A DNA stretch of 64,000 nucleotides, from assembly GCF_002854065.1 (NCBI RefSeq), contig NZ_CP024150.1. One strand, 5' to 3'. How positions within the stretch are numbered: position 1 is the stretch's first letter; each line of letters begins with the position of its first letter. A program made the position numbers. Positions 54,601 through 57,600 of the stretch are shown piece by piece. Origin of the DNA: Escherichia coli (GTDB taxonomy: Bacteria; Pseudomonadota; Gammaproteobacteria; Enterobacterales; Enterobacteriaceae).

Positions 54601-57600
54601 CTGAAAAGTGGGATTGTAAGGAGCATCAGAGTCATACCAATGCTGTTCTTCTAACGAGCAGCCAATAAATTATTCACTACATATCGATATGAGATATCCA
54701 AATTATTCAATAATGACCGCATAACCATGTCTGTAATTTGTATTATTAGATCACTTTGTTCAGAGCTAATTTCCTTTACCATAAAATGCTCATACATATT
54801 ATTATATGCTTCATGCTCATTTTCTGTTGCATGGCGTCCACATAAATATGGGAGATGAATATTATATTTACTTTCCACCTGTAAAGCTATATCTCCAACA
54901 TGAGAGAAAAATTCTTTTCCACTTAACTCCAGTATCATCATAAACCAGAACCTGATAACAGGATCTCTGTGTTTTAATCCGAACAAAGAAAACTTAACTA
55001 TATTTTCTCTATGCATATCCATATCTGCATTAAGAAAAATAAACTCAAGAGTATCACTGGCACTCCAACGTAACATATCATCAAGTTGAAGTGACTTCCA
55101 GTCATGATAAAATAAACGGCTATGCTCTGACAGGTGTAATACATAATCATTTATAATCTTTTCACTTTCTGATTCAGGCTGTTCATATGTAAAAACATAT
55201 TTATTAATATCTCTATACCCCATAATATCAACAATCCAAAGAGGTATGAAACTTTTCAATTTCAATTGAGGGTCTATTGAGGTGTTAATCAGCCATTTGA
55301 AGAACTCATGACTCGATATTTTTTCCAGGTAATTGTTTATATGTTCAATATGTCTACCATCGTTATGGATTTTGTTTTCTATCACAAACTCAGGGTATAT
55401 AGGTGCAACATTTTTCCCTACAGGTAATGATTCAAAAAATGACGGATGACTTCCATTAAGAACATAACTGGACAGGTAATTATAAAAAGAGTCATGAATT
55501 CCTTCAAATATATCAAACATTCTCTTTGAGAGAGTAGCCATTTTCTTATAAGAATCTGGTGACAACTCTATATTTTCAAAAACACCTTCTGACTTCCACA
55601 CATGTCCATTTTCAAGATTAAGGTGAAATGTTCCAAAATAACGGAGTGATATTCCCAAATGATTGGCAACTTGATCAGCAATAGGACTAATTTTTGAAAA
55701 GAATATATTACCGCAAGTTTCTCCTGACTCGGAGTGAGAATATCGAAGTATTGGTTCTCCTCCATCATCGACACAAAGTCTCATAAAATCAATACCAAAT
55801 TTTCGGAAACACTCCATTTCTCGACTAATAAACAACCAGTATATAACATCACTTGCTTTCCAGTTAAGTTTGTCATCTATATATAGCTTCCTCCAGTCTT
55901 CCAGAAACAATCTTGAATGTGTTTCATCCTCTATTGTTCCACCATTTATAACAGATTTATATTTATTATCATTGTTATCAAACCTGATAACCCATTTATT
56001 CATGTCTCTGAAGTTCATTATGAAATGAGCCATAACAGGAGCAAATAATAGTTTGTCTTTCAACGCTATACAATCTGAAGAAATCAAACTATAAAAATCA
56101 TGTTGTTCAAGCTCCTTTCGCTGTTCATCCCTAAATTGATAAAATTTCTTCATAGTGATATCTCCTGTTACTCAATAATATATAGAATACCAATACAGTA
56201 GTTTTATCAGCGATAATACAAAAGAAATTTAATATATTGTTAATAGATATCACTAACCAGAATCTACTATCAAGAACACATTATTTGAAAAAGATCACAA
56301 ATTTAATTCCCCTCATGTCCACTTTGATAAAAATATAAAACTTTGTGTCAAAGACTTGTTACGAGCTAGATTCTCCGGTCATAGCTACCAACAGAACCAG
56401 AAAGCAAAAAAGCCCAACCTCACCAGTTGGACTTTTATACCTAAATGTCCAGACGGCGGAGGAATTATGCACTGGAACTTGATCCTACCCACGTAATATG
56501 GACACAGGCCTAAGCGAGGTTCTGGTTTTCAAATTGTTCCGGACTGAGGCCGCCACACCAACTGTGCCGCCGCCACCGATTGTAATCACATTCGATATAA
56601 TTAAACACCGTTGCCCGCATTATTTCCCGGCTGATAAAGTGTTCTCCATGGATACATTCCACTTTCAGCGAATGAAAGAAGCTTTCCACGCAGGCATTAT
56701 CGTAGCAGCAACCTTTTGCGCTCATACTTCCACGCAGATTATGCCGCTTCAGTTGCGCCTGATAATCTGCTGAACAGTACTGGCCTCCACGGTCCGTGTG
56801 AACGATAACGTTCCGGGGCCTCTTGCGCCGCCACAGCGCCATCTGCAGGGCATCGCAGGCCAGTTGCGCCGTCATGCGTGGCGACATTGACCAGCCAATA
56901 ACGACACGTGACCACAGGTCAATGACCACTGCCAGATACAGCCAGCCTTCATCTGTACGTAAGTACGTGATGTCTCCTGCCCACTTCTGGTTCGGGCCAC
57001 TGGCGTAAAAATCCTGCTCCAACAGATTTTCTGACACAGGCAGGCCGTGTGCGCGGTAGCTGACCGGGCTGAACTTCCGGGAGGCCTTTGCCCTCAGTCC
57101 CTGACGGCGCAGGCTTGCCGCCACGGTTTTTACGTTAAAGGGGTAACCCTGAGCACGCAGTTCATCCGTCAGGCGTGGGGCACCGTAACGCTGTTTTGAC
57201 CGGGTAAAAGCCGCGAGAACAACGCTGTCGCAGTGTTGGCGGAACTGCTGACGCGTGCTTATCCTTGTCCGCCGCTGACACCACGTATTACCAGCCCGTT
57301 GCGGGCCACCCGGAGCACGCGGCACATTGCTTTGATGCTGAACTCAGCCTGATGTTTTTCAATAAAGACATACTTCATTTCAGGCGCTTCGCGAAGTATG
57401 TCGCGGCCTTTTGGAGGATAGCCAGCTCTTCATCCCGTTCTGCCAGCTGGCGTTTGAGACGTGCAATCTCGGTAGACATCTCCAGTTCACGTTCAGAAGA
57501 CGTCTGCTGATTTTGCTGTTTACTGCGCCAGTTGTAGAGCTGTGATTCATACAGGCTGAGTTCACGGGCTGCGGCAGTAACACCGATGCGTTCAGCAAGC

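Follow-up and report, generated by a model that had tools for sequence, protein, structure and literature searches.

What does a plasmid gene make when its product matches no named protein family? The question is raised by the gene for a 500-residue protein in a 64,000-nucleotide stretch of Escherichia coli plasmid DNA (contig NZ_CP024150.1 of RefSeq assembly GCF_002854065.1; this whole stretch is called the window below, and the positions of the features discussed are collected in Table 1). A preliminary description of the locus had presented the product as an internally duplicated protein of unknown function, possibly a tandem-domain enzyme or binding protein. Our analysis places the protein in the AetD branch of the superfamily of diiron oxidases with a heme-oxygenase-like fold (HDOs); its function is therefore no longer wholly obscure. 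We consider it likely, at a probability of roughly 0.7, that the protein is a fused pseudo-dimer of two AetD-type domains, in which the N-terminal half (N-half) is the catalytic part, a diiron oxidase that is triggered by its substrate, a free aromatic amino acid. We infer the iron binding, the substrate class, the chemistry and the role of the C-terminal half (C-half) in a pseudo-dimer by analogy with characterized relatives, and the protein is probably an undescribed small-molecule-making enzyme.

Fold, family and the N-terminal site

The internal duplication is borne out by a BLASTP alignment of residues 1-246 with residues 247-500, which gives 31% identity over 173 residues (E=8e-24), far beyond chance, and the same conserved block occurs in both halves, as THSRLFLEDWRKLYIDDKLNWKASD at residues 78-102 and as EHSRLFYHDWKSLQLDDMLRWSASD at residues 343-367. 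The AlphaFold2 model is all-helical and consists of two bundles (predicted local distance difference test score, pLDDT, 92.9); its best structural matches are to the HDO, TenA and heme oxygenase folds, with AetD the closest. Both repeats are heme-oxygenase-like helical bundles homologous to the diiron enzyme AetD, in keeping with the tandem-domain enzyme or binding protein, with possible metal-binding Glu and His patterns, proposed at the outset. The HSRLF motif of the conserved block contains the core-helix-1 His ligand. The description as two repeats needs one correction: they are homologous but not equivalent, the full site of three His and three carboxylate ligands being present in the N-terminal repeat only.

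In Aetokthonos hydrillicola, AetD acts in aetokthonotoxin biosynthesis as the nitrile synthase (PDB 8JI2-8JI7, 8TWN, 8TWT and 8TWW). Its Fe1 is held by H79, H172 and E176 together with the amine nitrogen and a carboxylate oxygen of the substrate, and its Fe2 by D76, E140, E176 and H179 (PMC10654658). An HX3EX2H motif is found on core helix 3; auxiliary helix 2 has F48 at the position of the Glu seen in HDOs that are not substrate-triggered; and the substrate is contacted by Y167, through a hydrogen bond to its carboxylate, and by F44, through stacking on its indole ring (PMC11611611). In a phmmer search of the PDB sequences, residues 1-231 of the tandem protein match AetD with E=3.4e-18, and the alignment is collinear, such that D76, H79, E145, H177, E181 and H184 correspond to D76, H79, E140, H172, E176 and H179 of AetD and the HX3EX2H motif recurs as H177-x3-E181-x2-H184. 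Conservation was counted over 45 homologues with 30-86% identity. Five of the six ligands (D76, H79, E145, H177 and E181) are present in 45/45 and H184 in 42/45; F48 and Y172 are likewise found in 45/45 and F44 in 44/45, and these three belong to a set of aromatic or substrate-type residues in the N-half that also includes F151, F216 and F223. The N-half has 18 invariant columns and a ratio of nonsynonymous to synonymous substitution rates (dN/dS) of 0.14 when compared with the copy in Escherichia fergusonii. The full N-terminal site persists in 20 of 30 relatives that are of two-domain length but more divergent, while the signature of the C-half erodes in this set. As far as sequence comparison can tell, none of the known requirements of a substrate-triggered, amino-acid-chelating diiron site with an aromatic pocket is missing from the N-half.

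The likeness to AetD extends beyond the six collinear ligands to the seven-helix heme-oxygenase-like fold, to F44 and the carboxylate-binding Tyr, and to the Phe that both proteins have in place of Glu at the auxiliary-helix position, a hallmark of substrate-triggered HDOs. The two differ in architecture, AetD being a 27-28-kDa single-domain homodimer whereas the tandem protein is a covalent 500-residue pair with a non-equivalent second domain; in setting, a cyanobacterial gene cluster in one case and an enterobacterial plasmid in the other; and in the pocket, where the tandem protein has G, C, F and F for M139, A142, I146 and S214 of AetD. Phe occupies the position of AetD I146 in 40/45 homologues. 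The AetD homologue SktA of Nostoc punctiforme makes skatole, cyanide and bicarbonate (PMC11869266), and our comparison with it rests on its published description. For SktA the same primary ligands are predicted, and its equivalent of S214 is reported to be Phe, as are F216 of the tandem protein and the corresponding residue in 40/45 family members, which fits a substrate without a 7-halogen. SktA is, in contrast, a single-domain protein, and has T139 and T142 where the tandem protein has G144 and C147. By its sequence, the N-half is assigned to the HDO superfamily with AetD and SktA as its closest relatives, and the protein departs from that clade in two features, the single-domain homodimer and the halogenase-containing cluster.

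Pfam, NCBIfam, PADLOC (0 families at E<=1) and PHROGs held no matching model for the tandem protein, and a Pfam scan of all 45 family members returned noise only. The family is small: an exhaustive HMMER scan of 1.84 billion representative proteins found 320 hits at E<=1e-3 and 48 at E<=1e-30, a mix of tandem proteins of ~500 residues and single-domain proteins of ~240 residues, the latter mostly aligning to the N-half; the named family members are all hypothetical or uncharacterized, bar one incidental UniRef name. A literature search on the four RefSeq accessions found no paper, and the papers on AetD and SktA and a 2026 review of HDOs mention neither an HDO-HDO tandem nor an enterobacterial homologue. 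Fusions of an HDO-fold domain are known from SznF, in which an HDO is joined to a cupin, and from the natural fusion PqqCD. In both the partner has an unrelated fold, whereas the partner in the tandem protein is a diverged second HDO domain. A covalent HDO-HDO tandem with one canonical and one remodelled site is an undescribed architecture, and it recurs across Proteobacteria, Myxococcota and Actinomycetota.

Two family entries are set apart. On a 1.3-kb GC-rich metagenome contig (L019, 3-1039), N-like and C-like open reading frames (ORFs) lie in separate frames and overlap in the linker, either as a genuine split (heterodimeric) version or through a frameshift, and this contig was not used as evidence. 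Another entry, P0135, which is located at the edge of its contig, is likely to be truncated.

The C-terminal domain and the proposed chemistry

The C-half matches AetD independently (phmmer E=1.2e-5), and its metal site is altered. The position of the Fe2 aspartate (D76) is taken by L341, which is Leu in 45/45 homologues; the equivalent of H179, the last His, is not conserved; and the equivalent of E176, position 445, is His in 32/45 and Asn, Glu or Lys in the enterobacterial clade, with Asn in the query. This leaves H344, E409 and H441 as the retained set, and the full complement of three His and three carboxylate ligands is, on the alignment, missing from the C-terminal domain. Given a Leu at the Fe2 aspartate position and the loss of the last His, the C-half should be unable to assemble a canonical diiron cluster. 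The domain is not decaying, having its own invariant residues and being under purifying selection: W306, D309 (in the place of F44), Y313 (in the place of F48), L341, H344 and H441 are found in 45/45 homologues and E409 and Y436 in 44/45, there are 17 invariant columns, and its dN/dS is 0.22. The linker between the domains has a pLDDT of 65-73, a mean pairwise identity of 16%, no invariant columns and a dN/dS of 0.56. For the whole protein, dN/dS against the E. fergusonii copy is 0.20, and purifying selection acts on both halves. Since AetD is a homodimer, the simplest reading of the fusion would be that it fixes the dimer as an asymmetric pseudo-dimer.

By analogy with AetD, catalysis may proceed as follows. 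A labile Fe(II)2 centre would load in the N-half through D76 and H79 of core helix 1, E145 of core helix 2 and H177, E181 and H184 of core helix 3. With F48 instead of Glu at the auxiliary position, coordination sites on Fe1 would stay open, and the amine and carboxylate of a free aromatic alpha-amino acid could chelate Fe1, with the carboxylate hydrogen-bonded to Y172 and the side chain seated in an aromatic box of F44, F48, F151, F216 and F223. Substrate binding would then trigger the addition of O2 to give a peroxo-diferric intermediate, and this species would start an oxidative fragmentation or rearrangement of the aminopropionate moiety; the corresponding fragmentation leads to a nitrile in AetD and to skatole, cyanide and bicarbonate in SktA, and the scheme draws on these precedents (PMC11611611, PMC11869266, PMC13108848). 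The C-half, the result of an ancient duplication, would replace the second AetD protomer and supply the partner surface, and its pocket of D309, Y313, H344, E409, Y436 and H441 could accommodate a single metal or a ligand. The enzyme's product would presumably be handed on, in myxobacteria, actinomycetes and Comamonas, to the adjacent cytochrome P450s (P450s) and methyltransferases. The gene forms a solo mobile cassette in E. coli, Salmonella and Piscirickettsia, which implies that the enzyme, if active there, must use a common cellular metabolite.

A more specific proposal is that the E. coli plasmid gene encodes an asymmetric two-site enzyme, with one diiron and one remodelled site, by which a free aromatic amino acid, e.g., tryptophan, would be turned aerobically into a bioactive fragment, namely a nitrile, a skatole-type compound, cyanide or more than one of these. 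We regard this as speculative and rather unlikely. If true, it would amount to an unrecognized O2-dependent route in enterobacteria to indole-derived or cyanogenic metabolites, with relevance to gut or host interactions. AetD-type chemistry, which is unusual in that one enzyme converts tryptophan into a nitrile or into skatole and cyanide, has so far been studied in cyanobacterial toxin pathways. The assignment gives a first functional handle on a hypothetical-protein gene of hundreds of plasmids of E. coli, Salmonella and Piscirickettsia, including an aerobactin-carrying plasmid of avian pathogenic E. coli (APEC), and, should a common amino acid be the substrate, it could bring to light a plasmid-borne metabolite that is new.

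Genomic contexts and competing interpretations

DNA similar to the gene occurs in 287 of 5,426 complete E. coli genomes (about 5%), almost always on a plasmid. In PLSDB, 331 plasmids encode the protein, 265 from Escherichia, 36 from Piscirickettsia and 22 from Salmonella. Conjugation is predicted for 259 of the 331, and in 323 a single location accounts for at least 80% of the protein. The gene locus of the window is 100% identical to that of the E. coli plasmid p2017.06.05CC_1, in which the product is annotated as hypothetical protein WP_044789362.1, and the gene matches at 100% the region coding for WP_044789362.1 in NZ_AP027791.1; it is ~98% identical to WP_000715078.1, which is found on IncF plasmids. 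The backbones vary. The plasmid of the window carries type IVb pilus genes, and the gene is also found on 40-50-kb plasmids of Shiga-toxin-type serogroups. On the IncFIB plasmid p1658/97 it lies between RepFIB and sopAB, on an APEC IncFIB/FIC plasmid it lies between the aerobactin operon and sopAB and is flanked by the insertion sequence (IS) IS1, and an IncFII plasmid of E. fergusonii holds a copy that is 88% identical in protein. The block common to three backbones consists of the ORF with ~160 bp upstream and ~80 bp downstream, terminator hairpin included. As the shared block shrinks to the ORF and short flanks, the gene is a self-contained single-gene cassette, and its adjacency to the type I toxin gene dqlB is inconstant. 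In Piscirickettsia and the Enterobacteria alike the gene stands solo among IS elements and partition or toxin-antitoxin genes. A match to a characterized housekeeping family, which the preliminary description had named as the contrary outcome, was not found: AetD-type enzymes belong to secondary metabolism, and the gene is accessory plasmid cargo.

A segment of ~100 bp upstream of the cassette is displaced elsewhere, lying 1.7 kb away beyond ISEc20 in the plasmid pO177B2 and 0.3 kb away in p1658/97, with an 11-bp overlap of the alignment blocks (56363-56373). The pattern suggests that separate insertions took place at one and the same site immediately upstream of the gene.

The distant homologues keep different company. 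Of 10 distant genomes sampled, 6 have a P450 gene adjacent to the homologue or in its vicinity, and 4 of those 6 have methyltransferase genes as well. In Comamonas antarctica (L005/L006, 9554-10897) the P450 gene overlaps the stop of the tandem gene by 4 nt and is followed by a major facilitator superfamily (MFS) transporter gene, an arrangement that suggests a compact three-gene make-and-export unit. The neighbours in Sorangium So ce1151 are a P450, an O-methyltransferase, a FAD oxidase and a glycosyltransferase-methyltransferase; Sorangium cellulosum has the order P450, HDO, methyltransferase, P450, and Streptomyces the order P450, HDO, 162-residue ORF, P450. Amycolatopsis and Actinomadura livida share a divergent methyltransferase, P450, DUF6875 and O-methyltransferase operon, and they also have a tandem paralogue of 488 residues directly downstream of the homologue (Amycolatopsis orientalis, L009, 8520-9986; Actinomadura livida, L014, 7553-9019). 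The Actinomadura paralogue is 31% identical to the query (E=7e-104) and has Arg at both of the positions aligned to H344 and H441. Together with the persistence of the N-terminal site and the erosion of the C-half signature in divergent relatives, this paralogue indicates that the constant feature of the family is a catalytic N-domain with a second HDO-fold domain. No Trp_halogenase Pfam match is listed in the distant homologue neighbourhoods. The contexts with P450 genes resemble small biosynthetic clusters that would make a modified aromatic metabolite.

Several observations weigh against the reading of the protein as an AetD-type oxidase fused to its dimer partner. Identity to AetD is only ~24%. 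The residues M139 and A142 of AetD, which differ in SktA, are G144 and C147 here, so that they give no indication of the substrate or of the outcome of the reaction. E. coli has neither a halogenase nor a tryptophanase nor a P450 partner adjacent to the gene, and a sigma-70 scan of the gene strand, from the upstream terminator to the start codon, scored no promoter. The strong and specific conservation of the C-half, moreover, suggests more than a structural role.

This last point leads to the possibility that both halves are catalytic, the N-half through its diiron site and the C-half through a second site, e.g., a mononuclear iron held by H344, H441, H445 or E445, and D309 or E409, with the two sites carrying out consecutive steps. 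The residues at the active-site positions of the C-half are indeed as invariant as those of the N-half, its dN/dS is low, and the equivalent of the carboxylate-binding Tyr is retained as Y436; the mononuclear HDO-fold variants FlcD and HamA, furthermore, show that the fold can lose its dimetal ligands and yet stay catalytic (PMC13108848). Set against this are the replacement of the bidentate Fe2 ligand by an invariant Leu, the loss of the H179 equivalent, the variability of the fourth candidate ligand at position 445 in the enterobacterial clade, the Arg pair of the actinomycete paralogue, and the decay of the C-terminal signature in divergent relatives that keep the N-terminal site. We regard two active sites as plausible though on balance doubtful, and as a refinement of the fused pseudo-dimer that does not contradict it.

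Another possibility concerns biological role and is compatible with the same chemistry, namely that the protein is an effector of defence, anti-defence or plasmid competition that, for instance, makes a toxic small molecule such as cyanide when triggered. Its appeal lies in the solo gene in IS-rich accessory regions beside type I and type II toxin-antitoxin loci in Enterobacteria and Piscirickettsia, in an Abi gene nearby on pO177B2 and AbiE genes a few kb away in Mycolicibacterium, and in the release of cyanide by the relative SktA (PMC11869266). PADLOC and PHROGs give no match, however; in other phyla the gene lies in operon-like clusters, together with genes for P450s and methyltransferases and for an MFS transporter; and its association with dqlB is inconstant, IS1 following it directly in IncF plasmids. 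We hold such a role to be quite improbable. Structural scores and the ligand pattern led us to reject an identity with CADD, the p-aminobenzoate synthase of Chlamydia, and make a self-sacrificing or non-catalytic HDO-fold protein of that kind, or a ligand-binding or regulatory one, very unlikely. They also speak against a true heme oxygenase, TenA thiaminase or PqqC-type enzyme, which we consider scarcely credible: these share the helical fold and appear at low rank in the structure search, and their sequence models gave no match to the protein.

Gene boundaries, expression signals and neighbouring loci

The gene is AT-rich as had been proposed, with a GC content of 0.30-0.36 against 0.43-0.59 in the flanks, and terminator-like hairpins on both sides of it fit a monocistronic unit, again in agreement with the preliminary description. 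The downstream hairpin lies inside the block conserved on all backbones compared, and the candidate promoter is not part of the minimal block that the E. fergusonii copy shares. A search of the whole window for the 19-bp Fur-box consensus with up to 3 mismatches gave no match and so lends no support to iron-responsive regulation. The placement of the gene between a DinQ-like locus and IS3 is confirmed, the end of IS3 (near 56480) lying on the opposite side from dqlB and the AgrB RNA.

Table 1. Positions of the tandem gene, its parts and signals, and neighbouring features in the window
Feature	Position	Strand	Remark
Coding sequence, 500-residue tandem AetD-like HDO protein	54651..56153	-	ATG start
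N-terminal HDO domain, residues 1-235	55449..56153	-	Predicted complete diiron ligand set
Inter-domain linker, residues 236-265	55359..55448	-	Poorly conserved, low-confidence model
C-terminal HDO-like domain, residues 266-500	54654..55358	-	Altered site
Shine-Dalgarno sequence AGGAGA	56161..56166	-	7 nt upstream of ATG; seen in the sequence itself
Candidate promoter, TTGACA, 16-nt spacer, TATCAA	56324..56351	-	Read by eye
Terminator-like hairpin, 10-bp stem and T-rich tail	54592..54615	-	36 nt past the stop codon
Second hairpin, upstream of the gene	56436-56408	-	Terminator-like
Block common to three backbones	54570-56309		
Segment displaced on other plasmids	56363-56469		~100 bp
DinQ-like locus, whole	53759-54300		
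dqlB coding sequence	~53759-53854	-	
AgrB RNA	54180-54267	+	Rfam RF02891, 61.5 bits
ORF with Enterotoxin_b domain	57995-58372	+	RefSeq pseudogene, internal stop
Orphan ORF, 118 residues	52178-52534	+	Hypothetical
Orphan ORF, 240 residues	52711-53433	+	Hypothetical

The DinQ-like type I toxin locus is complete, and its dqlB gene is annotated in the identical RefSeq record. A functional pairing of dqlB/AgrB with the tandem gene was considered and rejected, the adjacency being present in pO177B2 and absent from the IncF plasmids and the E. fergusonii copy.

On the other side, between IS3 and the type IV pilus genes, an ORF has, in its first 70 residues, a clear B-subunit domain of the heat-labile/cholera enterotoxin type (Pfam Enterotoxin_b, E=1.6e-14), with no A-subunit gene adjacent to it. 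The two AT-rich orphan ORFs beyond dqlB (30-35% GC) are absent from the other plasmid backbones compared; the longer one had no match in Pfam, PADLOC or PHROGs, and the shorter one only sub-threshold matches in PADLOC (E=0.008) and PHROGs (E=0.23). Elsewhere on the same plasmid (L001, 3436-6563), sodC, a 3'-5' exonuclease gene next to DUF6710, a RelE/NadS pair and a recombinase gene make up an accessory region in which many functions may relate to stress or defence.

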